Assembly: GCA_963701965.1 (NCBI GenBank)
Contig: OY969695.1
Coordinates: 160,001-224,000 of the forward strand
Direction of reading: 5' to 3'
DNA length: 64,000 bases
From: an uncultured Gemmatimonadales bacterium
GTDB lineage: Bacteria > Gemmatimonadota > Gemmatimonadetes > Gemmatimonadales > Gemmatimonadaceae
Positions 42,800-64,000 of this stretch are shown here, piece by piece (positions within the stretch are counted from its first letter, which is position 1; every line of letters begins with the position of its first letter). The notes below the pieces were generated by a model. It saw only the letters and a program-made list of their open reading frames with translations, searched no databases and was not told where the DNA came from. A program made the position numbers and the translations under genes.

Positions 42800-42835
42800 C
42801 CGCTCCGACGTTGCGCCTGCGCACCGTCGGAGCGG
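42800..42835. repeat. Long inverted repeat (terminator or attC relic)
   Basis: CCGCTCCGACG...CGTCGGAGCGG 11-bp arms plus inner TGCGC/GCGCA; followed on the minus strand by GCTAGGC. Confidence 0.6.
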
Positions 42836-42849
42836 GACGCGGCGCAGTC

Positions 42850-43143
42850 CTACGCGCCGACGTGCCGTTCGCGCGTCGTGCCGAAGCGCGCCGCCGAGCG
42901 CGCGCGTGCGCGCTCGGCCTCGACCTCCCGGTCGCGCGGCTCCGCGGTCGTGACCAGCGAATCGATGAGCGCTCGCGCCGCGCTCGCGACCTGCTCGACG
43001 GCGGCGTCGAACGCCTCCTGATTGGCCTTCGACGGCACGCTGAAGCCGCTCAGCTTGCGAACGAACTGGAGCGACGCGTCACGAATCTCGAGCTCGGTCG
43101 CCGGCGGCTCGAAGTTGAAGAGGGTCTTGATGTTCCTGCACAT
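42850..43143 (-). CDS. DUF2277 family protein
   Basis: MCRNIKTLFNFEPPAT...ASLQFVRKLSG. Confidence 0.85.
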   Translation of the reverse strand: MCRNIKTLFNFEPPATELEIRDASLQFVRKLSGFSVPSKANQEAFDAAVEQVASAARALIDSLVTTAEPRDREVEAERARARSAARFGTTRERHVGA

Positions 43144-43158
43144 CGCGGTACTGCTCCC

Positions 43159-43530
43159 TCAATCGGTCGGTGAATGGAGCGCGACCCGGTTGCCCTCGCT
43201 GTCGAGGACGATCGCGCGATAGCCGTGCGGGCCGATCTGATGCATCGCCTGGACGATGCGGCCGCCGTTCGCGGCGACGGCGCGCACGGCGTCGCCGAGG
43301 CGCCCGTCGGTATTGAGATAGACGAGCGGACCGCGCTCGCAGGGCGCGTTGTCGTCGTCGGGCGTGTAGAGGCAGCCGCCGACGTCGTCGTGGCTGTGGG
43401 AAAAGACGCCGAAGGCGAAGCCCGGGCCGCCTTCGCGCGTCACCGGGCCGTCGAGCACCGCCGAATAGAACCTGATCGCGCGATCGAGGTCATGCACCGG
43501 AATGTCGACCCAGACAAAGCTGTGGCTCAT
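43159..43530 (-). CDS. VOC/glyoxalase family protein
   Basis: VWVDIPVHDLDRAIRFY; DSEGNRVALHS. Confidence 0.88.
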   Translation of the reverse strand: MSHSFVWVDIPVHDLDRAIRFYSAVLDGPVTREGGPGFAFGVFSHSHDDVGGCLYTPDDDNAPCERGPLVYLNTDGRLGDAVRAVAANGGRIVQAMHQIGPHGYRAIVLDSEGNRVALHSPTD

Positions 43531-43542
43531 GGCGAATCGTCC

Positions 43543-44197
43543 TCAGTGTTGGGCGAGGCAGGTGCCGCTGCCGTGCGGCGCGGCGCGAAACTCGGGCAGT
43601 GTCTCGGCGTGTGCCGACCACTGCGCCAAGGCCGGACAGCGCCCGGCCGGAACCCGCTCGGCGATCGTCTGCTGAATGAAATGCCAAGCGACGGCCGCGC
43701 TCACGCCGTCCTGGCCGATGGTCGCGCTGTCGCCCGCCAGCGGCGCGCGCGCAACCAGGTCGGCCTCGAGCGCGTCGCAGGCGGCGATCAGCTGGCCGCT
43801 GACGCGCTCGATCCAGGCGTCATGCCGCTTCTCGGCCGGGCGCATGTTCTCGTAGATGATCTGAACGCTCTTCTCGCACGCGGCGAGGGCGAGGCCGATC
43901 GTGCCGCAGGGCGCGTCGGCGCGGCGCCAGCTCGGCCGGCAGCAGCCGCCGTGTGCCGGTCGCAAGGACCTCCGCGTACTCGAGGATGAGGCTCGAGTCC
44001 ATCAGCACCGTGCCGTCGTCGCAGACCAGGGTCGGCGCCTTGACGATCGGATTGATCGCGGCGAACTGCTCGAAGGTGCGAAACACCGAGAGCGGCTCGT
44101 GCACGAAGCGCAGGCCGAGCAGCTGCAGCGAGACGGCGACTCGCCGCACGTACGGTGAATCGAGCATGCCGATCAGTCGCATCGCGCTCTCTGCCAT
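43543..44197 (-). CDS. Glutathione S-transferase (frameshift near 43905)
   Basis: MRLIGMLDSPYVRRV, NPIVKAPTL, DSSLILEY. Confidence 0.85.
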
Positions 44198-44222
44198 GGC
44201 GAGGAGGATAGCGAAGATGGTC

Positions 44223-44651
44223 TCAGGGCGCGCTCGCGCCGAGATGGACCGCCGCGATCAGCCAGAGGAACACGAGCGCGAAGTTGCTCAGCGTGAACGC
44301 CGCGAGGCGATGGAGGACATGGTTGTAGGTGAGGTGGATCGCGCTGTGGATGACGCGCAGGGCGACATAGGCCGAGGCGATCCCGATCGTCAGCGAAGAG
44401 GCGCCGGCGGTGACGTAGAGCAGCAGGCAGACGACATAGAAGAGGATCGGCAGCTCGAGCAGGTTCATGTAGTTGCGATTCGGGATGCTGACGTACCCTG
44501 GCACCGCGGCCGACTCGCCGAGCTTGAAATCGTTGGGACGGATCTCGCGCTTGCGCACCGCGCGGACGCGCGCCATCGGTATGAGCAGCAGCACCACCAG
44601 CGTCCAGAACGCCAGGGCGAACATCGGATAGAGGATTGCCGGATTGCGCAT
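44223..44651 (-). CDS. MAPEG family membrane protein
   Basis: NYMNLLELPILFY, YVALRVIHS. Confidence 0.8.
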   Translation of the reverse strand: MRNPAILYPMFALAFWTLVVLLLIPMARVRAVRKREIRPNDFKLGESAAVPGYVSIPNRNYMNLLELPILFYVVCLLLYVTAGASSLTIGIASAYVALRVIHSAIHLTYNHVLHRLAAFTLSNFALVFLWLIAAVHLGASAP

Positions 44652-44657
44652 CGCGGC

Positions 44658-45074
44658 TCAACGCAGCTTGGTCCGGGCGAGCCGCTTGGCGTTGGCGACC
44701 GCCTTGCGATGAACCGGCGCGAGCCCCTTGCCGAAGACGCCGAGCGCGGCGTTGTGGAGCTCGACCGCGAGGGCGCTGGCGGCGGCCTTGTTGCTGCGCA
44801 GCGAGGGCGCGGTCCAGAGCGAGCGCGTGAGGGAGAGCGACAGCGCCTGGTGCGAGCGCATCGCCTGCAGCGCCATCGCGTTCCACGATTCGCTGAAGGC
44901 GCTGTTCTTCTCGGCCACCATGCGTGCGAACTCCTTGCGGTCACGCTCGGAAAGCTTCGGCCCTGCCAGCGCGATCCGCGTCATCCGGTGGGCCACGACC
45001 TGCGGCACCGCGGTCGCGAGCTCGCGCGCCTGGATCGCCAATTGGCGCGCGAGCCGCGAACGACGCGGGCTCAT
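44658..45074 (-). CDS. PHA granule-associated phasin-like protein
   Basis: AVPQVVAHR, EFARMVAEK, PVHRKAVANAKRL. Confidence 0.7.
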   Translation of the reverse strand: MSPRRSRLARQLAIQARELATAVPQVVAHRMTRIALAGPKLSERDRKEFARMVAEKNSAFSESWNAMALQAMRSHQALSLSLTRSLWTAPSLRSNKAAASALAVELHNAALGVFGKGLAPVHRKAVANAKRLARTKLR

Positions 45075-45283
45075 GACGCTACGGCGGCGCAGGTCGCGCA
45101 GACGCACGAAAAGCCGCCATCGAGCGCCGTCGCCCGCGCCAGGGCGGCCGAATCGAGGAGCGCGCTGACGCACCAGCACGGCGCCGCATCGTCGCCACCG
45201 CCCGATGCCATCACGCATCCGTTGGCGCGTTGGCAGAGCGGGCAGACGCTGCCGCGGACGATCGGCTCGGCCAACGCGCTCAT
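45071..45283 (-). CDS. Cysteine-rich CWC family protein
   Basis: CPLCQRANGC...PCWC...SCVCATC. Confidence 0.8.
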   Translation of the reverse strand: MSALAEPIVRGSVCPLCQRANGCVMASGGGDDAAPCWCVSALLDSAALARATALDGGFSCVCATCAAVAS

Positions 45284-45302
45284 CGGTCGGCGCCGCTCCG
45301 GA

Positions 45303-45668
45303 CTAGGCCTTGGGCACACGCTGGAACTCTCCCCACAACCCGCGGCACTGCCGGTCGAGCGGGCTCGAAGCGGGCGGCGCCGACGCCTTGGCCGCGCTTT
45401 TGGCGACGCGCTGACGCTCGCTCTTGTAGGCGGCGCCGGCACGTGTCTCGGCCAGGCGGGCGGCCGACTTCGCATCGGGCCTGATGCGCCAGAGGCTCAG
45501 ATAGGCTTCGTCGCGGTGCCCGGCCATCTCCGGATAGCGCGCCTCGCATTCGACATAGCTGACGTCGTAGTGCGCCAGCGATTTCGGGTCGTACGGATGG
45601 CTCTGCGCCAGCACCGGCGCGGTGGCGAGCGTGAGGACGACGGCGAGGAGAACAGGAGGGATGCGCAT
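45303..45668 (-). CDS. Small secreted protein with two cysteines
   Basis: Signal peptide MRIPPVLLAVVLTLATAPVLA; VEC...RQC. Confidence 0.65.
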   Translation of the reverse strand: MRIPPVLLAVVLTLATAPVLAQSHPYDPKSLAHYDVSYVECEARYPEMAGHRDEAYLSLWRIRPDAKSAARLAETRAGAAYKSERQRVAKSAAKASAPPASSPLDRQCRGLWGEFQRVPKA

Positions 45669-45833
45669 CGAGTGGACCGTTCGAAGTAGGAGAGCGGCAA
45701 CGAGCATATGGCCCGCGCCGGCTCGCGACAAGCCCGGAGTCTAGGCGGCGGCGGAACGAATGCGCACGATGATCGTCGCCCGGCTTCGTCCACCGGCCTG
45801 CCGTCGCCGGCGCGATCGCAGCACATGCGTCGA

Positions 45834-46247
45834 TCAGCCGAATTCCTGGTGTTGCGGCAGCCCGTCGACGATCTCGAACCACGGCGCCTTGGAGCCGACG
45901 AAGATGTGCGCGGATGGCCGGAGCGAGGGCGAATCGACCAGCGTGCCGAGGGTGACGTGGACGTAAGCGCCATCGCGAACGAGCGAGTACAGGAGCGAGC
46001 CGCAGACGGCGCAACGTGCATCGTGGGAGTTAGCGCTGCCGAAGAGCCGCAGACGGTCGCGGCCGTTGGCGATTTCGAGTCGATCGCGCTCGATGCCGGC
46101 GAACGGCTTGAACGCCGAGCCAGTGGCGCGGCGGCAGTTCGAGCAATGGCAGTTCAAGGCATAGCGGAAGTGGTCGTCGACCGTGTACTCGACCGCACCG
46201 CAGAGGCAGCGGCCGGCGAGCCGTCGCGCGGCGGAATGCGTCGGCAT
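45834..46247 (-). CDS. GFA (CENP-V) family protein
   Basis: GRCLCG, CHCSNCRR, CAVCGS, HIFVGSKAPW. Confidence 0.88.
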   Translation of the reverse strand: MPTHSAARRLAGRCLCGAVEYTVDDHFRYALNCHCSNCRRATGSAFKPFAGIERDRLEIANGRDRLRLFGSANSHDARCAVCGSLLYSLVRDGAYVHVTLGTLVDSPSLRPSAHIFVGSKAPWFEIVDGLPQHQEFG

Positions 46248-46632
46248 CAGCGACCGGCATAGTGCGCCGCCGCCATGACGAACGGAAGCACCAGTTCGGG
46301 GATCAGATAGCCGAGCCAGACCGCCGCGGGCCGGGGCAGCCCACCTTGCTGATCGAGAGCAGTCGGCCGCATCCGGCGAGCAGCACGCCGAGCGCGAGCA
46401 GGTAGACCAGCGTGTCCTGCTGGCGCACTGTGAGCCCGGCCCACAGGCAGATGACTCCGGTCCCGAGATAGACGCCGGCCATGAAGCGGTGGACGTTGTC
46501 GAGACGCGGCGAGGTATCGGGCTGGCCGAGGATCATCTGTAGCGAGCCGCCGAAGATCGCGATCGCGGCTGCGAGGAAAAGGCAGGCCTGGACGACGTGC
46601 TGGCTGAGCGTGAGTGGAAGGTCGGCGCTCAT
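46247..46632 (-). CDS. DUF4345-like membrane protein (frameshifted)
   Basis: LDNVHRFMAGVY, GRLLSI, YLIPELVLP in a second frame. Confidence 0.7.
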
Positions 46633-47039
46633 TCAGCGCCTTCGAGGACCAGCTGGGTTTGCGTGACGACGGCGCAGAGCTTGCCGTTGTCGTTCCTGAC
46701 CGAGGTCTGCCAGACCATCGTCGTGCGGCCGCGGTGCAGGGCGATGCACTCGCCCGTGACCGTCGTGTCCAGGCGCGCCCCGGCGATGAACTTGGTGCTC
46801 GAATCGGTGGTCGCCGTGCGCTTTCCCGGCTTCAGGTTGAGCAGCGTTCCGACCGCGCCCAGGGTATCGGCGAACGCCATGTAGGCGCCGCCGTGAAGGA
46901 TGCCGCCGGCGGTGCACAGGTCGGCGCGGACCTTCATCTCGGCGACGACCCGGTCGGGGGCGAGCTCGACCAGGCGCACGCCCATCAGGCCGGGGAAGAG
47001 CGGAGCGAGCAAGGTCTGGAGGGAAGCGAGTTCTGGCAT
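46629..47039 (-). CDS. PaaI family thioesterase
   Basis: GILHGGAYMAFADTLG hotdog-fold motif. Confidence 0.88.
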   Translation of the reverse strand: MPELASLQTLLAPLFPGLMGVRLVELAPDRVVAEMKVRADLCTAGGILHGGAYMAFADTLGAVGTLLNLKPGKRTATTDSSTKFIAGARLDTTVTGECIALHRGRTTMVWQTSVRNDNGKLCAVVTQTQLVLEGAE

Positions 47040-47091
47040 CGGGGGCTCCTCGCGGCGGAAAGCGTCGGATCCGCAGGTCGGTTTTCGGCCG

Positions 47092-47304
47092 TTACCTGGA
47101 CTTGCCGCCGAACGCCAGCAACAGGCCGCCGGCGACGACGGCGCCGACGCCGAGCCAGACCGGAACGTTGACCGTCTTCGTCTCCTTGACCGATAGCTCG
47201 AGCGGGCCGAGCTTGACCGCGGTCTTGTCGTCGGTGTAGCTGAAGCCGCCGTAGGCGAGCGCGAGCACGCCGAGGACGATCAGGACGACGGCGGCGATTT
47301 TCAT
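47092..47304 (-). CDS. Small two-TM membrane protein
   Basis: MKIAAVVLIVLGVLALAYGGFSYT...KLGPLEL...PVWLG; AAGGAG RBS. Confidence 0.75.
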   Translation of the reverse strand: MKIAAVVLIVLGVLALAYGGFSYTDDKTAVKLGPLELSVKETKTVNVPVWLGVGAVVAGGLLLAFGGKSR

Positions 47305-47351
47305 GAGGCTCCTTGGCAGCGGTGGCGCGATTCTGCCGTTGCCGTCGATCG

Positions 47352-47852
47352 TCAGGGCGAGGGGTTCCCGGCAAGGAGCTCGACCTCGGCCTCGACCTCG
47401 ACCGGGATGTCGAACGGCAGCTCGTACAGGCCGACGGCGCTGCGCGAATGCGCGCCGACCGAAGGGCCGTACAGCTCGACGATCAGCTCCGAGAAGCCGT
47501 TGATCACGCTCGGCTGTCGGTTGAACCCTGCCGCCGAGTTGACCATGCCAAGGACGCGGCACCAGGCCGCGACGCGATCGAGGTCGCCGATGGCGCGCTT
47601 CAGGCTGCCGAGCATCGACAACGCCACCAGGCGCGCGGCGGCATGGCCCTGCTCGAGCGACAACTCGCGACCGACCTTGCCGAGCGGCTCGGCAACCGAG
47701 CCGTCGACGTTCTGCGGACCGTGGCCGGAGATGAACGCGCGCGAGCCGACGATCCTGACGAACTGGAACGGCAGGACGACGCCGGGCGGCGGCTTGAGGG
47801 GTGCCGGCAACATGAGACCGAGCGCGGCGAGTTTGGCTTCGACAGCGGCCAT
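47352..47852 (-). CDS. RidA/YjgF family protein
   Basis: ISGHGP, GKVG, LGMVNS, INGFSEL, HSRSAVG, PVEVE. Confidence 0.88.
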   Translation of the reverse strand: MAAVEAKLAALGLMLPAPLKPPPGVVLPFQFVRIVGSRAFISGHGPQNVDGSVAEPLGKVGRELSLEQGHAAARLVALSMLGSLKRAIGDLDRVAAWCRVLGMVNSAAGFNRQPSVINGFSELIVELYGPSVGAHSRSAVGLYELPFDIPVEVEAEVELLAGNPSP

Positions 47853-47854
47853 GG

Positions 47855-48250
47855 TCAGACCTCCTTGTTGGTGACGGCACGGGTCAACGTGCCCGCGCCC
47901 AGAGTGACGTGGAGCATACGGCTCGGTGCGTGGACGCGGGCGGTGTGCCAGACGCCGCGCGGCACGACGACCGCGCCGCGCCCGGCAATGGCAAGCACGC
48001 GAACCCCGTCTTCGTGCTCGAGCAGCAAATCGATCGAGCCCGACAGCAGGTAGACGAACTCGTCGCCGTTCGGGTGCATTTCCCAGGTCGGCCAATCGGC
48101 GACGAACTCGTATTCGGACACGACCCAGTCGCTGCCGACGCGGTCTCGCTCGGCCTGCGCCAGCGACCAGAACGCGTCGCCTCCGGGCAGCGTCTCGGCG
48201 ACGCCGTCGGCGCCGAGGCGAACGTAGCTGTCTTGCGGATTCAAGAGCAT
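47855..48250 (-). CDS. Cupin domain protein
   Basis: WEMHPNGDEFVYLLSG; VVPRGVWH. Confidence 0.85.
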   Translation of the reverse strand: MLLNPQDSYVRLGADGVAETLPGGDAFWSLAQAERDRVGSDWVVSEYEFVADWPTWEMHPNGDEFVYLLSGSIDLLLEHEDGVRVLAIAGRGAVVVPRGVWHTARVHAPSRMLHVTLGAGTLTRAVTNKEV

Positions 48251-48924
48251 GGCGTATCGCCGCCGATCGGCGCTTCGAGCAGGCAACCGAACTCGCGCGC
48301 GAAGTCGACCGAGACCCGCGCGTGCACCGCGCCCTGCTGGTCGAAGAAGCGCTGGCTGCCGGCGAGGGCGAAGACGCCTTCGTGCCAGATGTCAGGATGG
48401 ATGTAGAGGCCTTGGGCGCCGGCGAATCGAAAGCAGACGAAGCGCTCCGGCGTGACGTCGTCGCCGGGCAGCGCCAACGGCACGTAGAACGGCCGCTGAT
48501 CGAGCGGAAAGAACAGCTGGCCGCCATCGGGGTGGTAGTTGGCGTGCCACAGGATCACGCGCCGCGGCGGATCGGCGTGATCGGTGCGCGCGAGCTCCGG
48601 CGCTTCGCCGTAGCCGAGGATGTAGTGGCCGCCGACGGCTTCGTTGCGGCCGTAGAGGATGTCGCCCTGCCATTCGCTCACGAACACGCCCTCGGTCGTG
48701 CCGCCCTGGTCGCCGGTATCGGCGTCGACCGGACGGCGGCCGCGCGCCGGCCAGCGAACGATCTCGACCCGGCACGCCGCGGGATCGTCGACCAGGCGCC
48801 CATAGCCGAGCAGGCTCTCGGGCGAGGCGTCGACGACCGGCATGCGCACGCGCTTCAGGCCCGCGGGCAGGTCGGGGAACAGGTAGTCGATCGGCGCCGC
48901 CGCGCTGCCGCGATCGCCGATCAC
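48241..48924 (-). CDS. Ureidoglycolate lyase-like cupin
   Basis: NYHPDGGQLFFP, GLYIHPDIWH. Confidence 0.7.
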   Translation of the reverse strand: MIGDRGSAAAPIDYLFPDLPAGLKRVRMPVVDASPESLLGYGRLVDDPAACRVEIVRWPARGRRPVDADTGDQGGTTEGVFVSEWQGDILYGRNEAVGGHYILGYGEAPELARTDHADPPRRVILWHANYHPDGGQLFFPLDQRPFYVPLALPGDDVTPERFVCFRFAGAQGLYIHPDIWHEGVFALAGSQRFFDQQGAVHARVSVDFAREFGCLLEAPIGGDTPCS

Positions 48925-49373
48925 GATCCGACTCCGCGCGCCATCAGGCTGGCGCACAGCGCCATCGCGAGCAGCAGGATCAGCTCGAAGCGCAGCATGA
49001 CCACGATCCGACGATGCTCCGTGCCCGAAACGACCGGTGCCAGACCTTGCTTCGTCCGTGCGCCCCACTTGATGAAGCGGATTGTCGGGTAGATCGACAG
49101 CAGGCCGACGCCGATGAACAGCGTCAGCTTGGCGCGAAAGAACGGGTTGGACATGTAGAACGCCTGGCCCTTCTCGAAGTAGTAGACGCGCAGGAAGCCG
49201 ACGACAAGGACCACCATGGCGAAGACGCCGAACCACCGGTCGGCGAGCTGGATGCGCCGCGCCTCGGCGAGCGTCGGCGCGCGGCTCATCGTCTGCCACT
49301 CGAGGAAGACGGTGGCGACGATCGCGAAGACCGCCAGGAAATGCAGGAACGCGAAGACGGCGCTGATCGTCAT
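48921..49373 (-). CDS. DUF2214 family membrane protein
   Basis: FLHFLA, YFEKG, KLTLF, LSIYPT, ASLMARGVG. Confidence 0.8.
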   Translation of the reverse strand: MTISAVFAFLHFLAVFAIVATVFLEWQTMSRAPTLAEARRIQLADRWFGVFAMVVLVVGFLRVYYFEKGQAFYMSNPFFRAKLTLFIGVGLLSIYPTIRFIKWGARTKQGLAPVVSGTEHRRIVVMLRFELILLLAMALCASLMARGVGS

Positions 49374-49384
49374 GGCGCAGAACG

Positions 49385-49735
49385 CTAGAGGCGGATGCCG
49401 AAGCGAGGCAACAGCCACAGCATCATCGCGTACGCGGCAGCGGTGGCCGCGCACGAAAGCGCCAGGCTCGGCCAGAAGCCAATGGCTGCGCGCAGCAACG
49501 CCGGGAACAGCGTGAACAGGACCAGCGAAGGCAGGACCAGCCAAAAGATGTTTTGCGAGAGCGCCGCGACGCGTTCCGCGCTCGCCGACTCGGCGTGCAG
49601 CCAGACGAAGGCGAGCAGCGACGTCAGCGGCAGCGATGCCAGCGCCGCAGCCCACAGCGAGTTGCGCTTGGCGAGCTCGGTGACGGCGACGATGACCAGC
49701 GCCGAGACGAGAACCTTGATGACGTAGTGGGTCAC
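49385..49735 (-). CDS. DUF3147 family membrane protein
   Basis: IKVLVSA...ELAKR...LASLPLTSLL...FWLVLPSL. Confidence 0.8.
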   Translation of the reverse strand: MTHYVIKVLVSALVIVAVTELAKRNSLWAAALASLPLTSLLAFVWLHAESASAERVAALSQNIFWLVLPSLVLFTLFPALLRAAIGFWPSLALSCAATAAAYAMMLWLLPRFGIRL

Positions 49736-49755
49736 GGCGTTCGCATTCCTTCATC

Positions 49756-50068
49756 TCAGCGACAGCTTTCTTCGACCCACCGGCCATAAGGCTCGGACAC
49801 CCGCTCGAGAGGCACGGCGTCGATCGCCGGCAACTCGTACTCGTGCAGCTCGCGAATCGCGCTTTCGACCGCCTGGTAGCGCTCGTCGGTCGTCTTGAAG
49901 AGGATCCGGAACTCCGGATCGTTTGCGATCTTCCCCTGCCAGCGCGTAGAAACTTTCGATCGCCGAGATTTCCGCGCACGCCGCCAATCGGCGCTCGACC
50001 AGCGTCCTGGCGACTCTTCGCGCGGACTCCAGGGTGGCCACGGTCGTGGTGACGGCGAGGAGCTTCAT
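49756..50068 (-). CDS. cutA: Divalent-cation tolerance protein CutA (frameshifted)
   Basis: LVERRLAAC, ELHEYELPAI, YGRW. Confidence 0.85.
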
Positions 50069-50139
50069 CTGCGCGTCGTGTGATCGGCCGGAAAGGATAA
50101 ACCCGCGGCGGCGCCGTTCCGATGGTGTGCTGCGCCGGT

Positions 50140-50638
50140 TCACCGGCAACCGACGGCTTCGGCCACGCCCATCTCCCCGGCGATCAAGGCGAAGTCTGCG
50201 GCCGGGATGTTGGATGTAGCCGAAGCGGAACGCCGCACCCCAGTGCGTCTTGTTCGTGATGAACGACAGGCGCTCCACGAGCGGCTTGATGGCCGCCTCC
50301 ACCGCCTCGCCGAAGAAGCCGATGTCGATGCGGTACGGCTCGAAGTCGTCGGCCATCTGTACCTGGTAGATCGTGCCGGTGGTAACGATGCCGATGGCCG
50401 TGAAGCGCTGCAGCGGCTGACCGTCCGGGTACGACGTTCGCGGCGAGTACATCACCAGCCCGTCGCCGGCATGCATGCGCCGCAGTGGCGCACGCTTGCC
50501 GTGGCTGAGCTGGATGAAGCCACCTTCGACGCCGACACGAACATGCTCGCGCGAGACGACGCCGACCCAGAATTGGCGTCGCGCCGTCGCCACTTCAAGC
50601 GTGGCGCCAGTTGTCGCCTTCCTGCGGGAGGTGCTCAC
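50140..50638 (-). CDS. EVE domain protein (frameshift near 50210)
   Basis: WVGVVSREHV...HGKRAPLRRM...YSPR...FTAIG...WGAAFRFG. Confidence 0.8.
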
Positions 50639-50652
50639 CTGTCGCCCCGCGC

Positions 50653-51447: not shown

Positions 51448-51475
51448 GGTCGCGAAGCGGGCCCTCGCGCCCGGC

Positions 51476-52525: not shown

Positions 52526-52534
52526 GACGATAGC

Positions 52535-55519: not shown

Positions 55520-55534
55520 GGGGAGGGTGCGGCG

Positions 55535-55921: not shown

Positions 55922-55949
55922 GCCTAAGCCTCCGCGTTGCCGACGTCGC

Positions 55950-56369: not shown

Positions 56370-56396
56370 GGGTGGCTGGGCCGTCCGGCGCAAGGG

Positions 56397-56876
56397 TCAG
56401 AACTCACGGCGCTGCCTCATGCGAAGTCCGTTCAGCAAGGTCACAAGCTCTTCGGGATTCATGCCGTAGGACTCCGGCAGCGCGCCCTCGGCGCCGGCCA
56501 GCCGCGTCGCCAGCCTACGCGTTGAGGCGTGGGTCTTGTATCCCTCGCTGTACCTGAGGCCGACCATCGTCGTGGTCCCCATGCTGATCGGCAAGAATTC
56601 CGCCAGGTCGTTCCACGAATGAAACGTCTTGCGGAACATGGAGCACATCGTGAGCCCCCGGTCTTCCAGGAGGAGATACGAGCTGCCCGGCGGGAGATTG
56701 ATGATCGCGACGACCGCACCAAGACCGAAAAAGACGATCGCCGAATAGCCGGCCCAGGGCGAGTCGTGCCGTATGAAGATTCCGCCTGCGACGAATGCCA
56801 CGCAGCCAAGGAGAAGTCCCAGCGACCTCGTGCGCGCACCCTGAAGGCGTCGCGGAAGAGGCGGGGTTGCTTGCAT
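56397..56876 (-). CDS. Two-TM membrane protein with a PH-like domain (STM3941-like)
   Basis: Two TMs, then SYLLLEDRGL...SWNDL...LPESYGM. Confidence 0.6.
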   Translation of the reverse strand: MQATPPLPRRLQGARTRSLGLLLGCVAFVAGGIFIRHDSPWAGYSAIVFFGLGAVVAIINLPPGSSYLLLEDRGLTMCSMFRKTFHSWNDLAEFLPISMGTTTMVGLRYSEGYKTHASTRRLATRLAGAEGALPESYGMNPEELVTLLNGLRMRQRREF

Positions 56877-56885
56877 GGGTGGATT

Positions 56886-56903
56886 CTGCGGTTCGACATG
56901 CGC
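56886..56903 (-). repeat. attC-like relic (3' half)
   Basis: GCGCATGTCGAACCG ending about 15 nt before the next ATG; the core 10-mer is identical to 61807-61816. Confidence 0.5.
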
Positions 56904-56923
56904 GTTGCCAAAAGGCGCGTGCC

Positions 56924-57160
56924 TTATTTGACCGAGCGCCACGGCGCGGCCAACTTCGGCCAACCGAGCCGGCGAGCAAGGAACGCCACGCGCAGCCATG
57001 CAGCACCGTAGACGATGGCGACCGAGGCGAGCGCAGCCATGACCCAGCGCGAGTTCGCCAGTGCGATGTACAGCGCAGTGCACCCGGCCGACAACCATAC
57101 GGCAGACAGGCCTGCCGCCAGGAGCCGCTCGAAGCGGGAGAGCTTGCCATTCCTGCGCAT
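56924..57160 (-). CDS. Small two-TM membrane protein
   Basis: 78-aa hydrophobic ORF in array orientation. Confidence 0.55.
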   Translation of the reverse strand: MRRNGKLSRFERLLAAGLSAVWLSAGCTALYIALANSRWVMAALASVAIVYGAAWLRVAFLARRLGWPKLAAPWRSVK

Positions 57161-57199
57161 GATGCTGACTAGGCCGCGATGTCCTGGTTCATGGGTGCT

Positions 57200-57234
57200 C
57201 CCGGACCGGTTGAAGGGGGCTGGAGGGGTTAGAC
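57200..57234 (-). repeat. attC-like relic (5' half)
   Basis: GTCTAAC (RYYYAAC) containing the TAA stop of the upstream gene, followed by CCCTCC. Confidence 0.55.
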
Positions 57235-57705
57235 CTCACCGGGTTTGGGAACGACGCGCAGCGTGGCATTGAGGATCTCCCGGTCCTCCGGATCGGGAAG
57301 CGCCGCGATCAGCCGCTCGGCCTCGCGATAGCTGCTTGCATGGGCTTCCCGCTCGCCGGCTGCCGCCGCGACGCTGGCCTTGACAGCGAAGGCGCAAGCT
57401 CGTTCCCAAGGCTCGCAATCCTGTCCGAGGAAAAGCGGCTCGGACTGCGCCAGGTAGTGCTTGGCTGGATTCGGCAACTTCAGCAACGCGTAGACGTGCG
57501 CTACGAGTTGCGCCGCACGGGCCCGGTTTCCCGCGGTGCCGACGAGCTTCCAGAAGTACATCGACGCATGAGCCGCCTGAAGCATTTCCTCGTCCTCCTG
57601 CGGAGAGCGTTGCGACTCCGACAGTCGCCAGGCTCGATTGTTCGCCTGCGCGGCCAGTCGCCGCTGCCAGCGCGCGACTTCCTCGGGTGATGGGGAATCG
57701 GTCAT
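57229..57705 (-). CDS. Hypothetical helical protein
   Basis: 158-aa ORF, ANNRAW...MLQAAHASMYFW; flanked by R'-like and R''-like sites. Confidence 0.7.
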   Translation of the reverse strand: MTDSPSPEEVARWQRRLAAQANNRAWRLSESQRSPQEDEEMLQAAHASMYFWKLVGTAGNRARAAQLVAHVYALLKLPNPAKHYLAQSEPLFLGQDCEPWERACAFAVKASVAAAAGEREAHASSYREAERLIAALPDPEDREILNATLRVVPKPGEV

Positions 57706-57710
57706 AGGTG

Positions 57711-57747
57711 TTCCAACGGTGAGAAATCCGAGCCTGATGGATTAGAC
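57711..57747 (-). repeat. Collapsed attC-like site
   Basis: GTCTAAT (contains a stop)...CGTTGGAA, then ATG 5 nt later; only 37 bp long. Confidence 0.5.
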
Positions 57748-58304
57748 CTTGAGGTGCTTCGTGATGGCCGCATCGAGTTGCGCCACGGTGGGTTCAATCG
57801 CGAGCCCTCCGTTACCCGCGAGCTCTGGGCAAGCTTGTCTTGCATGAACGCCGACTCGGGCGACAAGCCCTCGGTGATCTGCGAGAGTTGTGCCTCGCGC
57901 GACATCGAACGTGCCGTCAGGCTCCTCGCGGCCCGGGCCCCGATGCGAACCTCTGCATAGAGGATGCGAGCCTGCACCGGGCCGCAGCCGCCGGCCCTGC
58001 AGGCATGGAAAGACATCACGTCGGCGGCCCTTCTCGGCACGCCCGACGTATTGCACGCGACGTCTTGAACTACCGACGCGCGCCGATAGTCGTCGGTATA
58101 GGGGCTTCCAACGCTTGACCAAAGCGGCTGGGGATGGCTCGCGCCGTTGACCACGGAGCCCTTTGGCGCGGGCCATCGGGTACCCACAGGATCGGTAAGG
58201 CTGAAGTCGCACAACAGTTCCATGTCGCGATCCGGGGCCACTGCGTCGACCAGCCACTCGGTCTTTGGGTTTCCGGAGAAAGAACCGTGATTCGCCATGG
58301 GCAT
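57742..58304 (-). pseudogene. DUF1353-like protein, degenerate
   Basis: W.APKGSVVNGASHP..LW..VGSPY..YRRASVVQD; the expected IP and HD appear as HP and QD; frameshift near 57815. Confidence 0.6.
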
Positions 58305-58321
58305 CTCCTCGACCTCACGTT

Positions 58322-58966
58322 GGCGCTTGATCACGCGGAAGGGATGCTCGACCCGCGCTCGCACCTGGCCTTGAGCGTCTCGCGCTTGTGGATTGCACGC
58401 ACTGGCGAGCGCCCCTCGGGCAGCTTGGCGCTGTCACTCGGCTTGCGCGGCGATGTGCCACCGCAGCTCCTCGCGCTCGGCCACGCTTATCTGCGCCGCT
58501 GTAGCCAGCATCGGCAAGCACCACTTCTTCCTTGCCGTGCAGCAGGTCATCGACTTGCTCGATGTCGGCTTCGTTGGCTGCCGTGGTGGTCACTGTGTGC
58601 ACCAGGCCCGAGTCGGCATCGACTCCGATGTGCGCCTTCATGCCGAAGTGCCACTGGTTGCCCTTCTTGGTCTGGTGCATCTCGGGGTCGCGCTCGCCGT
58701 CTGCGTTCTTGGTCGAGCTCGGCGCGGCGATGATGGTGGCGTCGACGATGCTGCCGCGCTTGAGCAGCAGGCCCTTGCGCGTCAGATGCGCGTTGACCCG
58801 CCTTGAGGATCTCCGGGGCCAGCTCGTTGGTTTCGAGCAGGTGACGGAAGTTCAGGATCGTCGTCTCGTCCGGGATCGGCTCGCCCAGCTTCAATCGCGC
58901 GAACGCGCGCAGCGAAGCAATCTCGTAGAGCGCTTCTTCCATCGACGGATCGCTCAGTGCGACCAG
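58322..58966 (-). mobile_element. IS5-family transposase remnant, truncated at both ends and frameshifted
   Basis: [68 protein letters not shown]. Confidence 0.9.
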
Positions 58967-59356
58967 CTAACGCTCGAACAGCATGCTCGTCCCCGTGGCC
59001 AGCACACCGATGCCGACGACGGCAGACACGGCGAGGAACAACGGGTCTTCCGACTGAAGATACAGGCCGACGAAGCCGACCAGCATCGCGGCGGGCATGA
59101 AGAAGCTCAGCGGATACAGAGCAGCGATGCGCAAGCGCACGATCTGGCCCACCAACGTTCCCATCGCCACGCTGAGCATGCCTACCCAACGAGGCATGAC
59201 GTTACCGTAGTCGGTGTTCGAGAGCATTGCCGCAAGCGCGACGCGCGGTGAAATCAGAAGCGCCAAGCCGCTGAGGACGAGGTAGCCCGCCACGTACCAA
59301 ATGCAAAGGCGGACTCGCCTTGCGGCTGATGCTTGATCCCGAGTTTCAAGCAGCAT
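58967..59356 (-). CDS. Four-TM membrane protein
   Basis: 129-aa ORF with four hydrophobic segments. Confidence 0.6.
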   Translation of the reverse strand: MLLETRDQASAARRVRLCIWYVAGYLVLSGLALLISPRVALAAMLSNTDYGNVMPRWVGMLSVAMGTLVGQIVRLRIAALYPLSFFMPAAMLVGFVGLYLQSEDPLFLAVSAVVGIGVLATGTSMLFER

Positions 59357-59371
59357 GCGAGCGCGCCCGCT

Positions 59372-60052
59372 CTATTCGGTTCGATCGCCCAGTTCCGGGA
59401 TCGGTCGGCCCTGGCTGCGGAGATAGCCCACCATCGCCATCACGACCGTCCTGAGCGCCGGCCGACCGATCATTCGCTCTCGCCAGGCGAGCAGATTCGA
59501 ATGGTCCGCAGTCATCGGTACCGTGTGGCGCGCCGCGAAGAACTGCGCCATGTAGAACGCGATGTCGGCGTAGCTGAATTGGTCCGCCAGGTATTCATGA
59601 CCTAGGAGCCGCTGGTCGATCCAAAGGTAGTGCGCCTCGATGGCTGCTCTTGCCGTTTTCCACTCGGGCGCGTCAACCGGATCGGGATTTCCGCGCAGGC
59701 CCATCAGTCGAATAACAGGAGGAAAGAAGATTTCGTCGGAATAAAGCTCCAGTTGCCGTGCCTCTGCTCGCGCGGCGACGGAGCGCGGCCACAGTGGCGG
59801 CTCCGGCCAACGATCTTCGAGGTATTCGAAGATCTGCGTCGAGTCGAAAACCTGGACGTCGCCATCAACGAGGACGGGCACTTGATGTTTGGGATTGATG
59901 CGCAGCACGTCAGGATGCTTCGGTGTGTAGCCGCGTTCGAAGTCGAACGGCACCATCACCAGATCGAACTCGATTCCCTTCTCGCGCGCGGCGATCTCGA
60001 CCTTCGCACCGAACATGCTCAGCGGACCGGAGTAGATCTGCAAGCGATCCAT
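59372..60052 (-). CDS. Glutathione S-transferase
   Basis: YSGPLSMFGAKV, INPKHQVPVL, DSTQIFEYLE, FSYADIA. Confidence 0.88.
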   Translation of the reverse strand: MDRLQIYSGPLSMFGAKVEIAAREKGIEFDLVMVPFDFERGYTPKHPDVLRINPKHQVPVLVDGDVQVFDSTQIFEYLEDRWPEPPLWPRSVAARAEARQLELYSDEIFFPPVIRLMGLRGNPDPVDAPEWKTARAAIEAHYLWIDQRLLGHEYLADQFSYADIAFYMAQFFAARHTVPMTADHSNLLAWRERMIGRPALRTVVMAMVGYLRSQGRPIPELGDRTE

Positions 60053-60098
60053 GGGAATTTCGCGAAGGGAGCCATTCACCGCTGCTGTCGCGCGGGCG

Positions 60099-60524
60099 TC
60101 ACTTCGGTGCGGCCGGAACCAGCCCGTAGCGGGCCATGACAGACACCAGCGCCGCCTTGTCCGGAGGGCCTCCGCCGTTGACCACGGCGGCGACGTCTTT
60201 GAAGTATTGCGCTCCAACATCGGGAGACATCACGATCAGGGCGCGAGCGGTCTCGCCGAATGGATTCGAGAAGGCATGGACGACGCCCTTCGGGGTGCTC
60301 ATGGTTTGGCCCGCCGTCAGGTCGCGGGTCTCGCCTCCGACCGAATAGCGAAGGGCGCCCGCGAGAACGTAAACGCATTCTTCGTTGTTCGAGTGGCTAT
60401 GTGGCGGAGGGACGTTCGAGCTAGGGGGAACCGTCAGCTCGAACATCCCGAGACTCTTCGTATCGGAGCCATCGACGATGTAGTTGATGCCGAGCTGGCC
60501 TACCGTGATTTCGTTGCTGTCCAT
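60099..60524 (-). CDS. Cupin domain protein
   Basis: PPPHSHSNNEECVYVLAG; PKGVVHAFSN. Confidence 0.85.
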   Translation of the reverse strand: MDSNEITVGQLGINYIVDGSDTKSLGMFELTVPPSSNVPPPHSHSNNEECVYVLAGALRYSVGGETRDLTAGQTMSTPKGVVHAFSNPFGETARALIVMSPDVGAQYFKDVAAVVNGGGPPDKAALVSVMARYGLVPAAPK

Positions 60525-61036
60525 GCGATTTGTTGGTCAGTTGAGGTACTTGTTGTGCGCGCGTGTCGCGCCGCTAGGAAGTCAACACATTCTTGGTTCT
60601 GCCAGAGCTTAGCAAGTTGCATCGGTTCCTGAGGTTGTTCCGCGAAGACAGCGACTCCTTCCGGAAACACCACCCACGGCTGGGCGCTTCGCGTCCAGAT
60701 ATGCGCGACGGGAGGGAACTGCGACGGATGGTCCAAGGTGCCGGGCTGAAGAACACGAATGGCCTGATTGAGCCGAGGCTCGCCCCAAAGGCGCGTGCCA
60801 CAGACTGCGCACAGCTGACCCCGCTTGACTCGGCCGTCCGCCAGCGTGGCGGAATAGGACGATGTGCTTCCATGCGTGACGACCAGGGCTTCAGCGGGAA
60901 CGATGAGCGAGAGGGCGAACGCGCTGCCCGTACGGCGCTGGCAGTCCGTGCAGTGACAGACGTAGCTGGTGAGCGGTTCCGCGCCCAGCCGGTAGCGAAC
61001 CGAACCGCACAAGCACCCGCCATCACAGGACTCCAT
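60500..61036 (-). CDS. GFA family protein (C-terminus runs into the next gene)
   Basis: GGCLCG, CHCTDCQRRTGSAF, CAVCGT, HIWTRSAQPW. Confidence 0.85.
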   Translation of the reverse strand: MESCDGGCLCGSVRYRLGAEPLTSYVCHCTDCQRRTGSAFALSLIVPAEALVVTHGSTSSYSATLADGRVKRGQLCAVCGTRLWGEPRLNQAIRVLQPGTLDHPSQFPPVAHIWTRSAQPWVVFPEGVAVFAEQPQEPMQLAKLWQNQECVDFLAARHARTTSTSTDQQIAWTATKSR

Positions 61037-61040
61037 GGGA

Positions 61041-61481
61041 TCACTCCCGCTGCGCCGGCCCAAGCAGATTGGCATCGCGGGCGAGCGACCAGCGGCCGCC
61101 CTGGCGACGAAAGACGGTCAACGTGTGGCCGCTGCGGCGCGTTGGCGTGCCGCCATCCGGTGGCGTCGCCAGCACCGTGAGCTTGCTCCACATGAACGCC
61201 CAGTCGCCTGAAACTTCGACTTCCTGAATATCGCTTGTGGCGTCGAACCTCGGCGTGCCGCCGCTTGCCTGAGAACGCAGCGCCGCGGCGAACTCGTCCT
61301 TGCGCATGGCGGCCCTGCCGGGGACGAGGAAAACGACGTCATCCGTCACGAGACTCAGGACGGCTTCGACATCGCCGGATCGGCTTGCCGCCACCCATGT
61401 GGACACCAACTTGCGAATCTGTTTCTCGTCGTCCTTCATTTGTCGCTCCATGTCTGCACGAGCCCGCAAGGCATTCCTCAT
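61041..61481 (-). CDS. SgcJ/EcaC-like NTF2-fold protein
   Basis: DDVVFLVPG, IQEVEVSGDWAF, W.LARDANLL. Confidence 0.8.
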   Translation of the reverse strand: MRNALRARADMERQMKDDEKQIRKLVSTWVAASRSGDVEAVLSLVTDDVVFLVPGRAAMRKDEFAAALRSQASGGTPRFDATSDIQEVEVSGDWAFMWSKLTVLATPPDGGTPTRRSGHTLTVFRRQGGRWSLARDANLLGPAQRE

Positions 61482-61789
61482 TCGGCATGCGAAGGGTCGT
61501 AGGGCAGACCGTCCACGCTGACGAACCGGGCGGAACTGAATTCCCTTCGAAGCGCAATGAGCCGTTGATAGTCAGAACCGTCGTAGAAATCATCAAGGGT
61601 TTGCCTGGACGGAAACTCCAGGATGCTGAGCCTCCGCGGCGACCAGTCGCCCTCATGGGTCTTGGGGACGCCGCCTCGCACAAGGTACTTCGCACCCGCA
61701 GCAGCGAGGAGTGGTCTCAACTGCACAGAGAAGTCTTTCCACCTCTCCGTGTCGCGAATCTCCACCTCAAAAATGACGTACGCGGGCAT
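61478..61789 (-). CDS. DUF1330 family protein
   Basis: MPAYVI, GAKYLVRGG, EGDW, ILEFPS, YQRL. Confidence 0.85.
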   Translation of the reverse strand: MPAYVIFEVEIRDTERWKDFSVQLRPLLAAAGAKYLVRGGVPKTHEGDWSPRRLSILEFPSRQTLDDFYDGSDYQRLIALRREFSSARFVSVDGLPYDPSHAE

Positions 61790-61800
61790 AGCGTCGCTCC

Positions 61801-61850
61801 GGATGCGTTCGACATGGAGTGGCCGCGAGCGGGCCGGAAGGGGGTCAGGC
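61801..61850 (-). repeat. attC-like relic with both ends recognisable
   Basis: GCCTGAC-CCCCTTCC...GGCCACTC-CATGTCGAACG, 12-18 nt before the DUF1330 ATG. Confidence 0.6.
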
Positions 61851-61883
61851 GTCACCGCTGGCTGGCGGCACTGGCTTCAAGGC

Positions 61884-62453
61884 TCAGCTCTCGTTGTGAG
61901 TAACGTTGATGCGCCGACGTGTTCGTGCGCCAACGTCGTAGATGTTGAAGTCGCTCATCGTGCGTCCGTAGAGGTGCAGGCTGACTGCCCGAGGCCGTTC
62001 CGACGGAACCCCGGTGACGTGAATGTGATCGGGGTTTGGAACGAAGCTCGTGACTGCGCCATGTCGCAGCAGCACGGTACCGCCGCGTGCAAGGTCGATA
62101 TCCGCGTCAGCGCCTCGGTCCGGCGAGAGTCGTACGTAGCTGCGCTCTTCCAGAACTCCTTCGATCACGCCGACCACGCCCCAACTTCCGTGATCGTGAA
62201 CAGGCGTCCATTGACCGGGAAGCCAGACGATCGAATACAGCGACAGGCTTTCGTCCGCAGCGTCGTAGACGAGGTTGCGCGTGTAGCTCTGAGGGTCGCT
62301 CCGGTAGTGTTGCGGCTTGAGAAAGGTACCGGCCTGTTCGATCAGATCGAGCATCAGTGGTGCGAGAGCGAGTACGCAGTCCGCGGGGTCGACCTGGGCG
62401 TGGCTTCGCGCGGCCGCTTGGGAAATGAAGCGCTCAAGAGCCGCGGAGATCAT
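61884..62453 (-). CDS. Cysteine dioxygenase family (thiol dioxygenase-like cupin)
   Basis: YTRNL, WLPGQWTPVHDHGSWG, DHIH, SLHLYG. Confidence 0.85.
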   Translation of the reverse strand: MISAALERFISQAAARSHAQVDPADCVLALAPLMLDLIEQAGTFLKPQHYRSDPQSYTRNLVYDAADESLSLYSIVWLPGQWTPVHDHGSWGVVGVIEGVLEERSYVRLSPDRGADADIDLARGGTVLLRHGAVTSFVPNPDHIHVTGVPSERPRAVSLHLYGRTMSDFNIYDVGARTRRRINVTHNES

Positions 62454-62460
62454 GGGCACG

Positions 62461-62507
62461 ATTGTGCTCGCAGACTCACGCGACGCGCGACGTGTGAGCA
62501 GTTAGGC
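62461..62507 (-). repeat. attC-like relic with hairpin and a -10-like CACAAT
   Basis: GCCTAAC, then a CTCAC...GTGAG hairpin, then CACAAT 7 nt before ATG 62453. Confidence 0.5.
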
Positions 62508-62525
62508 ATCAATGCGCCGCACGGC

Positions 62526-63012
62526 CTAGGTACGGACTTCCGCCTCGCACTCGATGATGACGGGTGCGTTGAGCGCCAACTCCGCGACGCCGACAACGGC
62601 ACGAGGACATAGGGCGATCTCCTCACCGTAGAGGGCGATGATCAAGTCTGTAAAGCCGTCGATGACTTGTGGCTGGGCGTGAAACCCCGGGGCCGAGTTC
62701 ACCATGCCGAAGACACGCACCCAACTGCCCACGCGGTCGAGATCCCCAGTTCGCGCTTTAGGTCAGCCAACACGGCAAGCGCCGTATTGCGCGCGGCAGC
62801 GTAGCCCTCCTCGATGGTCAGATCGGAGCCCACCTCGCCGGGCCTTCCAGCAAGGAGCCATCGGCCGCGCGTGGTCCGTGCCCCGCGATGACGGCGCGCG
62901 TGCCCAACAGGCGCACCTGCCGCCACTTGATGCGAAAACCCGGCGGAACCCTCATTTCGCCCGGAAGGACCAGCCTCATTTCGGACAACTTGGCTTCAAT
63001 TTGCACGATCAC
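62526..63012 (-). CDS. RidA/YjgF family protein (two frameshifts)
   Basis: IAGHGP, GEVGSDLT, FGMVNSAPGF, IDGFTDL, RAVVG. Confidence 0.8.
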
Positions 63013-63059
63013 CCCTTGATGACGCGAAGAGAGTCACGTGGAAGGCTGGAAGCAACCGG

Positions 63060-63195
63060 AGGGTAGGGTGTGCAGGAGGGACTGCGGCCCGGGCCGATCG
63101 AAGAGACAAACGGGTACTTCATCATGCGACTACGGGACCCTGACCAAACCCTGGTCGTGTTCGCGAGCGCCAAGAGGTCGTAGCCGTTCACACGC
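63060..63195 (-). pseudogene. Possible C-terminal fragment of an MBL-fold hydrolase
   Basis: ERLRPLGAREHDQGLVRVP*SHDE resembles the ERLR...V.CSHD tail of MBL-fold proteins. Confidence 0.3.
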
Positions 63196-63199
63196 ACCG

Positions 63200-63236
63200 G
63201 CCCCCGGGATTCGACGTTCGAGGGAGTGGTTCGGGC
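63200..63236 (-). repeat. attC-like relic with central deletion
   Basis: GCCCGAAC-CACTCCCTCGAAC-GTCGAAT directly after a stop codon. Confidence 0.4.
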
Positions 63237-63737
63237 TCACGGTTGCTTGCGGCTGCAATCGAAGGATCGGTCATCGCTGTAGAGGCGACACCACAGGCCA
63301 ATGATCTTGCTTTCTCGCTCGGGCGATGCGTCCGCAAGAAGTTTGAGCACCTCCGCTTTGGCTTGAATGATGTCAGGCCCGAACGCGGGAAGGTCGGTAG
63401 GGAACCGTCCGGAAAAATCGTCAGGCAACTGCTCTGGGAACAGCGCCTGCAGGGCGGCCGCGGACGCCCTGGCCTGGCCGACTGATTGCGCCGAAAGCAC
63501 GATTTCAGCGGCCTTCAGCTGGAACTGCGCGCGAGCTTGAAAGTTCTGACTTAGAACACCCGCGATCAGCGTGGCACCCGCGGCCGCCGCCGTGACGGCT
63601 ATGGAGATGGCCGTGTATTTCGCCTTCTTGGCCTCCAGCCTTTGCTTGACTCTCTCAAGCCGCGCCAGGCGCAACTGCAGCGCCAGCTTCTGACGTTCGA
63701 TCCGAAGTTTTTCGCGCTCAACGGACAATTGCAGCAT
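63237..63737 (-). CDS. Hypothetical protein: N-terminal coiled coil plus one TM
   Basis: GGAGGT RBS; EREKLRIERQKL heptads, then hydrophobic AISIAVTAAAAGATLIAGVL. Confidence 0.65.
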   Translation of the reverse strand: MLQLSVEREKLRIERQKLALQLRLARLERVKQRLEAKKAKYTAISIAVTAAAAGATLIAGVLSQNFQARAQFQLKAAEIVLSAQSVGQARASAAALQALFPEQLPDDFSGRFPTDLPAFGPDIIQAKAEVLKLLADASPERESKIIGLWCRLYSDDRSFDCSRKQP

Positions 63738-63754
63738 GACTACCTCCACGCAAG

Positions 63755-63830
63755 CACCGTGCTCCGCCGAGCGGCGGCCGCAAGCAAGCGAAGCTTGCTC
63801 GAGGACGTCCGCTCGACGGAAGGACTAGGG
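63755..63830 (-). repeat. Best-preserved attC-like hairpin
   Basis: CCCTAGT-CCTTCCGTCGAGCGGACGTCC-TCG-AGCAAGC-TTC-GCTTGCT-TGC-GGCCGCCGCTCGGCGGA; begins at the upstream gene's stop codon. Confidence 0.7.
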
Positions 63831-64000
63831 GACACGGAAGAACCGACGCAGCACAATAAGCATGCCGGCGAAGAGCGTCAGCAAGAACACCGCCAGGACG
63901 GCGATGAAGGGAGCTTGCTCCAGCCGCGGCGGATGCCCGATGTTGGCATGCACGACGAACCAGTGCGTGAAGCAGAGCACGCCGAGCGTTGCATAGGCCG
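63825..64000 (-). CDS. Membrane protein, C-terminal part (starts beyond the window)
   Basis: ...AYATLGVLCFTHWFVV...FIAVLAVFLLTLFAGMLIVLRRFFRVP*. Confidence 0.6.
   Translation of the reverse strand, partial: AYATLGVLCFTHWFVVHANIGHPPRLEQAPFIAVLAVFLLTLFAGMLIVLRRFFRVP

Follow-up and report, generated by a model that had tools for sequence, protein, structure and literature searches.

The stretch analysed here is a window of 64,000 nucleotides (genome 160001-224000, on a single 5.1-Mb contig, OY969695.1) assigned to an uncultured Gemmatimonadales bacterium, and it contains the far half of a 42-kb array of genes that all lie on the minus strand. The array runs through the window from 42850 (window coordinates are used unless marked genome) and extends for about 21 kb past the window edge. 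It is the distal half of a chromosomal integron array that is entered from the right, because a truncated intI gene and intact attC sites were found beyond the window. We suggest with good confidence that the far end of this sedentary chromosomal integron consists of cassettes that became trapped once their attC sites were deleted and that afterwards approached the host in composition, the oldest lying outermost; locking by attC deletion and the later compositional drift are each likely. An earlier note on this DNA had proposed that ageing cassettes turn into chromosomal genes here, and of that proposal the loss of attC, the host-like composition, the tight spacers and the fixation stand, but the gain of promoters is not supported; both checks that the note had named as able to refute its idea turned out in favour of it.

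Composition and spacing both change along the window. Among 37 window genes, G+C at third codon positions (GC3) rises leftwards (rho -0.76 against position, p 5e-8), as does an index resembling the codon adaptation index (rho -0.80), and spacers shorten (rho +0.50, p 9e-4, for 41 curated spacers, the ends of some frameshifted genes being approximate). From left to right, mean GC3 is 0.89 (42.8-50 kb), 0.84 (50-57.2 kb) and 0.75 (57.2-63.8 kb) and the median spacer 11.5, 28 and 49 nt, with host genes flanking the array on both sides at a GC3 of 0.91. Spacer GC climbs too, from 0.63 to 0.71, and gene length remains cassette-like along the array. The trends in GC3, codon adaptation and spacer length are ones that the earlier note had proposed looking for, and its spot G+C counts (28/60 at 59701-59760, 40/60 at 43201-43260) and three 4-nt start/stop overlaps (45071-45074, 46629-46632, 48921-48924) were reproduced; the long spacers it described at the right end are indeed longer than those at the left, but modest inside the window. 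A 1-kb GC trend of equal strength occurs in only 0.36% of 5031 other 21-kb windows of the genome, and the GC3 trend is the strongest (-0.81) among the 25 longest same-strand gene runs, the runner-up reaching 0.42. It also holds inside the attC-free zone, both in the source genome (rho -0.74, n 40) and in a relative, G078 (-0.79, n 79).

The attC sites themselves disappear over a much shorter distance. Beyond the window they form a homogeneous 75-nt family of 13 sites scoring 42-93 bits; covariation within the family fits a hairpin (two-sided change in 78 cells, reached in 0 of 500 shuffles), and three of the sites fold with z of -1.5 to -3.3. Between 20000 and 64000 in the window a covariance model finds one site, at 48 bits (Table 1), and genes at 42850-63737 lack a downstream attC of their own by both the model and a stub search, so they are not current cassettes. 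What remains are 5′ attC stubs (p<0.02): to the right of 53 kb they stand behind 7 of 21 genes, to the left behind 1 of 24, and this one sits at a frameshift stop. A stub at 57742 (p 0.03) and a context at 60574 were dropped as stop-linked relics since the Pfam-bearing frames there differ. The recognisable attC relics claimed for the right end come down to the one site and the stubs to about 53 kb. The RYY-TGA-C stop contexts that had been taken for relics at the far left are at chance level: RYY-stop-C is seen in 1 of 16 genes at 42.8-50 kb (p 0.54) and 2 of 12 at 50-57 kb (p 0.11) versus 4.7% of 4081 host genes, and the context at 47352 is CCC-TGA-C, which does not fit RYY. Pooled over relatives, only genes that are partly ameliorated have such contexts in excess (18% and 12% versus 4.7%), and in fully host-like genes the share drops to 3-5%. 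The attC sites vanish by deletion across a front a few kb wide, not by slow drift, and GC goes on rising for 20-40 kb past that front.

That the tail genes once were cassettes is indicated by their homologues. The comparison covered 135 metagenome loci selected for an intact attC pattern, of which 80 were retrieved together with their flanks. Homologues with an attC immediately behind them exist there for 5 of 36 window genes, compared with 4 of 2159 host genes matched for size (odds ratio 87, p 1e-7); near-half genes have such a homologue in 3 of 18-21 cases. The homologue of the VOC gene (L237, 68% identical) is a cassette with an intact attC over its stop and a GC3 of 0.58. The cupin gene at 47855 has a 60% identical cassette homologue with intact attC in L217, the PEMT-like methyltransferase gene one of 55% identity in L254, and the 70-amino-acid (70-aa) gene homologues of 76% identity in L263 and L326. 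The cupin gene at 60099 is 81% identical to cassette L270, and both of its junctions retain cassette-side flank without the attC hairpin. These comparisons support a cassette derivation of the far genes as a class; for the other 31 genes we infer it from their context.

The pattern recurs in relatives. Among 201 genomes we found 61 DUF2277 matches and fetched 38 loci. Of these, 22 were kept as arrays, 14 were set aside because DUF2277 has other surroundings there, and 2 for being too short; the 14 include G088, and neither it nor G012, both unpublished, underlies any conclusion here. Close relatives were found through lolC, and the genomes with arrays are Caldimonas-like. GC3 falls towards intI in 15 of 23 arrays (14 of the 22 relatives and the source genome), and the trend is significant in all 12 arrays that reach an attC; the 8 arrays without a trend are contigs covering the far end only. 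Arrays that reach an attC show an attC zone, then a transition of broken sites, then an attC-free tail of 5-46 kb, and in every relative with attC the polarity follows intI. Past the last attC, pooled GC3 runs 0.70, 0.73, 0.80, 0.845, 0.86, 0.88 and up to about 0.92, and pooled median spacers drop from more than 100 to 10-50 nt.

The earlier note's suggestion that the left-hand genes should be shared with relatives was borne out. In G070 and G078, whose lolCD are 97% identical, 55 of 60 tail genes are common and collinear (order tau 1.0), versus 0 of 23 genes in their attC zones, both of which are cut by contig ends; G078 carries 31 attC plus about 79 attC-less genes. All 55 shared tail genes have a ratio of nonsynonymous to synonymous change (omega) below 0.5, with a median of 0.17, and so do 9 of 11 genes compared between the source genome and G041, which shows purifying selection on the tail genes between relatives. 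The more alike the lolCD of two genomes, the better their gene orders agree (rho 0.75 over 47 pairs). Genes are shared less with relatives the nearer they lie to attI (rho -0.46), and tails cluster by sub-clade.

We propose that the tail would arise in five steps. IntI would insert new cassettes at attI and push older ones outward, as in established integron biology and in keeping with the platform seen beyond the window; attC sites of the outer cassettes would then be deleted. A gene without a flanking attC could presumably no longer be excised and would be inherited vertically in the fixed order that is observed. Useful genes would be held by purifying selection and spacers would shrink to overlapping start-stop codons, and at last GC3, codon use and spacer GC would reach host level, if the observed trend reads as change in that direction. 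Promoter-like boxes would come along with some cassettes and would not be gained. Deletion of attC may proceed by replication slippage. The position of dnaA (2.64-2.72 Mb) and a flip of motifs resembling FtsK-orienting polar sequences (KOPS) near 260-300 kb place the cassette genes on the lagging strand, with which the KOPS-like motifs of relatives, 10 on the cassette strand and 41 opposite, agree; a dif-like site was not found with the patterns used. Loss of intI is not required for tail formation, because G077 has a stop-free intI beside a 19-kb attC-less tail.

Several observations weigh against this account, and some of them favour rival explanations. The genomes compared are kin, picked via DUF2277 and lolC matches, and their arrays are replicates of the pattern, not independent trials. 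The array lies about 15-60 kb from the inferred terminus, so strand assignment in the source genome is uncertain, and in the near half attC score relates only weakly to position (rho 0.44, p 0.06). Gene order differs between sub-clades and SnoaL3 departs from the host tree, and for both reasons position is a local, not a universal, clock; lineages have likely drawn on a common pool and fixed its genes in part independently of one another, SnoaL3 being an example, with protein trees of short genes poorly resolved. Inside the window a three-level staircase beats a line, the corrected Akaike information criterion (AICc) being -237 for two steps, -232 for a line and -230 for one step, and the trend is monotonic but may be stepped. 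A few multi-gene blocks could accordingly have been fixed in bursts, for example while intI was inactive, and differ in period or donor, so that age would attach to each block; intI is broken here and in G060 and G069. Over the whole array, two steps (-374) only tie with the line (-372), one step (-361) is 11 units worse, pooled and long arrays rise smoothly, and single genes with single-cassette homologues are interleaved differently in relatives. We regard such episodic fixation as rather unlikely, and it is partly compatible with cassette-by-cassette locking and drift.

Substitutions that could be polarised show no net excess from AT to GC (20:32 and 22:86), in a test biased by its GC-rich outgroup, and homologue pairs are only 50-90% identical, so their donors could differ. 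Both points would suit a history in which composition never changed and high-GC cassettes, or those of an older GC-rich pool, were preferentially retained. That reading is improbable, as 0 of 82 attC-bearing cassettes have a GC3 of at least 0.85, a level at which tail genes abound (of 245 genes in the terminal 6 kb, 175 have 0.88 or above), and wherever a family includes both forms, which is so for 15 families, GC3 is higher in the copy that lacks attC (+0.12; 15 of 15). SnoaL3 copies that are 89% identical also vary in GC3 by place, 0.69 versus 0.83-0.87.

Of the 36 window genes, 31, among them DUF2277, GST, MAPEG and 4HBT genes, have no attC-followed homologue in the 135 loci, which also weighs against the account. 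DUF2277 stands outside any such array in the 14 of 38 loci mentioned, no attC trace exists left of 53 kb, and the cassette form of the 70-aa gene is placed without resolution among tail copies. The far-left genes might on these last three grounds be ordinary host or island genes beside an integron, some of them the source of cassettes. We consider this very unlikely given the 87-fold enrichment in cassette homologues, which equals that of the near half, the rarity of such genes after lolD in other lolC loci (matches in 6 of 79) and the cassette-like gene lengths. A regional cause of the GC slope, such as terminus proximity or strand bias, or chance, is almost certainly not the explanation: the array is near the inferred terminus, but GC-rich host genes on both sides largely refute the idea, as do the few windows that are equally steep and a polarity that follows intI in relatives with attC.

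A gain of promoter-like boxes with age is not supported. The four host-style -10 hexamers pointed out in the earlier note are at the places it gave (TATCCT 44205-44210, TAGGAT near 52445, TAGCAT near 55030, CACAAT 62461-62466). A sigma-70 scan gave 2 sites against 1.8 expected per region, and a -10-like motif is present in 22% of families that come after a full attC; the share is 13-24% for tails and 41% for divergent host genes. Among the 29 families for which a cassette-form leader exists, none gained a box, 2 inherited one and 2 lost one; where this could be tested, boxes arrive with the cassette. The motif is clustered by family (chi 130 versus 50). In cassette homologues L263 and L326 of the 70-aa gene CAAAAT already stands at the place of its CAGAAT box, and 8 of 10 tail copies of the gene have a like box. 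Such conservation within some families hints at a function. The only minus-strand sigma-70-like match (56883-56911) overlaps a 3′ attC stub, possibly a promoter formed at a deletion junction.

The platform from which the array was built sits at a fixed chromosomal locus and is vertically inherited: lolCD, array, intI and dnaE2 are complete in four genomes, namely the source genome, G060, G069 and G077. The intI remnant is divergent from the array, its match to TIGR02249 (positions 1-85, genome 248005-248265) is below the cut-off, and no match for a functional IntI exceeds the cut-off anywhere in the genome. As the integrase is broken, the whole array in the source genome is likely frozen. At the same locus intI is full-length and stop-free in G077. 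Classification as a cluster of attC sites lacking an integron-integrase (CALIN) was rejected, the intI remnant lying 3.5 kb from the first attC. A core-like attI candidate precedes the first cassette, and a LexA-box pattern stands at the intI promoter, here and in G043, G069 and G077; the LexA-box pattern has no match in G044, and no Pc promoter was identified.

Mobile elements have entered the platform. The LexA-box-like site of the intI promoter is followed at a distance of 2 nt by a group II intron (both within L009:7983-9930), which puts 1.9 kb between that site and intI. For an intron linked to an integron, such a target is unusual; an insertion sequence (IS) relic begins just across from it, on the other side of the LexA-box-like site. 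An IS110-family element lies within an attC (genome 240614-241700, L009:2614-3700), an end of the same element persists at a second attC (genome 234453-234590, L008:12453-12590), and an IS3 element splits an attC near genome 243.9 kb. In this the IS110-family element resembles the attC-targeting IS1111 elements. In G044 (L207:339-6557) an intact intI stands beside dnaE2 with several genes on the intI strand and no attC match in 6.9 kb upstream.

Table 1. Features of the array, its flanks and its integron platform (window coordinates unless marked genome).
Feature	Position	Strand	Remarks
lolC-lolD-like host genes	39270..41278	+	anchor the far end of the array in relatives
DUF3943 gene	41284..42780	-	far boundary; same place in 7 relatives; cassette origin unproven
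attC-less tail	42850..63737	-	about 40 short co-oriented genes (gene calls, Pfam)
VOC gene	43159..43530	-	GC3 0.88, 15-nt spacer; second gene from far end
70-aa gene	47092..47335	-	CAGAAT box at 47330-47335
cupin gene	47855..48250	-	
5′ attC stub, leftmost candidate	53438..53450	-	p 0.012, weak (45 genes tested)
PEMT-like methyltransferase gene	55058..55519	-	
5′ attC stub	56392..56401	-	p 0.008; overlaps stop
3′ attC stub	56884..56904	-	p 0.004; overlaps the only minus-strand sigma-70-like match
5′ attC stub	57221..57233	-	p<0.001; overlaps TAA stop
DUF1353 gene (Pfam frame)	57702-58364		
IS5-type transposase relic	58315..58942	-	
cupin gene	60099..60570	-	
GFA gene (Pfam frame)	60500-61075		
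internally deleted attC, 5′ and 3′ stubs	61805..61849	-	5′ stub p 0.018; 3′ stub by eye
5′ attC stub	62496..62506	-	p 0.012; beside CACAAT box 62461-62466
5′ attC stub, 17 nt	63218..63234	-	p<0.001
last recognisable attC	63757..63828	-	5′ core and stems kept, 3′ core gone; bottom-strand fold z -4.0
DUF1648 gene, 3′ part	63825..64000	-	cut by window edge
attC-bearing near half of array	genome 224.3-245.1 kb		13 more attC sites; insertions of IS110 and IS3
candidate attI	genome 245085-245110		core-like site before first cassette
LexA-box-like site	genome 245983-245998		pattern match
group II intron	about genome 246001-247930		
truncated intI, 93 codons	genome 247948-248229	+	abuts dnaE2
dnaE2	genome, from 248229		

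Families represented in the tail include DUF2277, VOC, GST, MAPEG, GFA, 4HBT, cupins, GNAT, AHSA1, SnoaL and DUF1330. The array as a whole has five GFA-family genes, two in the window (45834-46247, 60500-61075) and three beyond it (L008:3450-3890, 8441-8893 and 13357-13731); a 2026 preprint, going by its title, reportedly describes an integron-borne Gfa family of fosfomycin resistance (10.64898/2026.10.07.757220). Similar genes also occur in pairs at different depths, RidA-like at 47352-47852 and 62526-63012 and cupin at 52535-53013 and L008:11589-12068, possibly as repeat captures of one family at different times. PADLOC, run on 16 proteins, returned only two weak P-loop matches, and a repeat finder only chance GC-rich repeats.

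The pseudogenes once listed as a right-end feature are not supported as one, since frameshifts occur at the left end (GST, DUF4345, CutA) and in core genes as well. Of 18 core orthologues tested, 5 carry frameshifts, at a rate of 0.41 per kb. Past dnaE2, a comparison of 1.3 kb of host DNA with similar contigs from other runs shows eight short indels of 1-2 nt; pseudogene calls are therefore unreliable in this indel-rich assembly. The genes recJ (36149-38236), lolD (40520-41278) and dnaE2 (genome 248229-250952) look split or shortened, most likely through assembly indel errors. The taxonomic label of the source genome may be wrong: lolC is 90-91% identical over its best segment to genomes labelled Caldimonas sp., whereas the genomes assigned to it as relatives, G001-G040, are only remotely similar, with a lolC identity of 34-36% for 3 of 5 same-genus genomes, and showed no synteny.

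Acquired genes are said, after Lawrence and Ochman, to drift to the GC3 and codon use of their host; what differs here is that chromosomal order likely gives relative age directly. Among known systems the closest in kind are the sedentary chromosomal integrons of Xanthomonas at the ilvD locus, which, in the parts of the sources available, show a fixed locus across the clade and frequent intI inactivation (PMC5371416; 10.1101/2025.06.18.660453). The attC bottom strand falls on the template of the lagging strand for 5 of 30 such integrons, each of them from Xanthomonas, and the authors speculatively connect this with erosion (Loot et al., 2017, PMC5371416). As far as those parts go, the present array shares the fixed locus, the intI inactivation and the probable strand placement, and differs in that the Xanthomonas arrays, counted by attC, hold at most 22 cassettes, whereas G078 has, besides its 31 attC, a tail of about 79 attC-less genes that is graded and passed on vertically; neither a tail of this kind nor a gradient is described for Xanthomonas in the same parts (PMC5371416; 10.1101/2025.06.18.660453). 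Cury et al. (2016, PMC4889954) propose that captured genes pass through very degenerate attC arrays on the way to being stabilised for good. In the sections available, that hypothesis concerns integrase-less clusters, while here a positional series runs within one array, past any detectable attC and, in G077, also beside an intact intI. One sentence in a preprint suggests that replication slippage readily removes attC sites in their folded form and so domesticates cassettes; in the text available this is said of cassettes at secondary sites, and no natural series is shown (10.1101/2022.09.11.507474). No positional series was reported in the literature searched in full text, mostly without subscription papers, where the idea appears only as a hypothesis (PMC4889954), and it is likewise absent from the available parts of PMC3607928, PMC11023631 and 10.1101/2025.06.18.660453.

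Integrons are usually viewed as stores that work reversibly and keep their distal cassettes in silent reserve. In the present array that distal part appears irreversible, conserved and host-like, and it is often longer than the attC-bearing part; attC-based surveys would therefore undercount what integrons contribute to genomes. Within a lineage, the relative age of a gene can likely be read from its position, and this may allow the loss of attC, the shortening of spacers and the amelioration of GC to be timed for each gene. We offer as a tentative generalisation, to which we give a little less than an even chance, that the integron of this Burkholderiales clade is a one-way conveyor, in which an unusual lagging-strand orientation deletes attC at a moving front and leaves tails of up to 80 ordered, selected genes that are invisible to attC-based tools, a general and overlooked source of small-gene operons and a GC clock. 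If true, such fossil tails would serve as a clock for the rate at which, and the force by which, foreign DNA takes on host GC, and, as spacer GC rises too, they would allow one to ask whether biased gene conversion or selection raises GC once a gene is population-wide.

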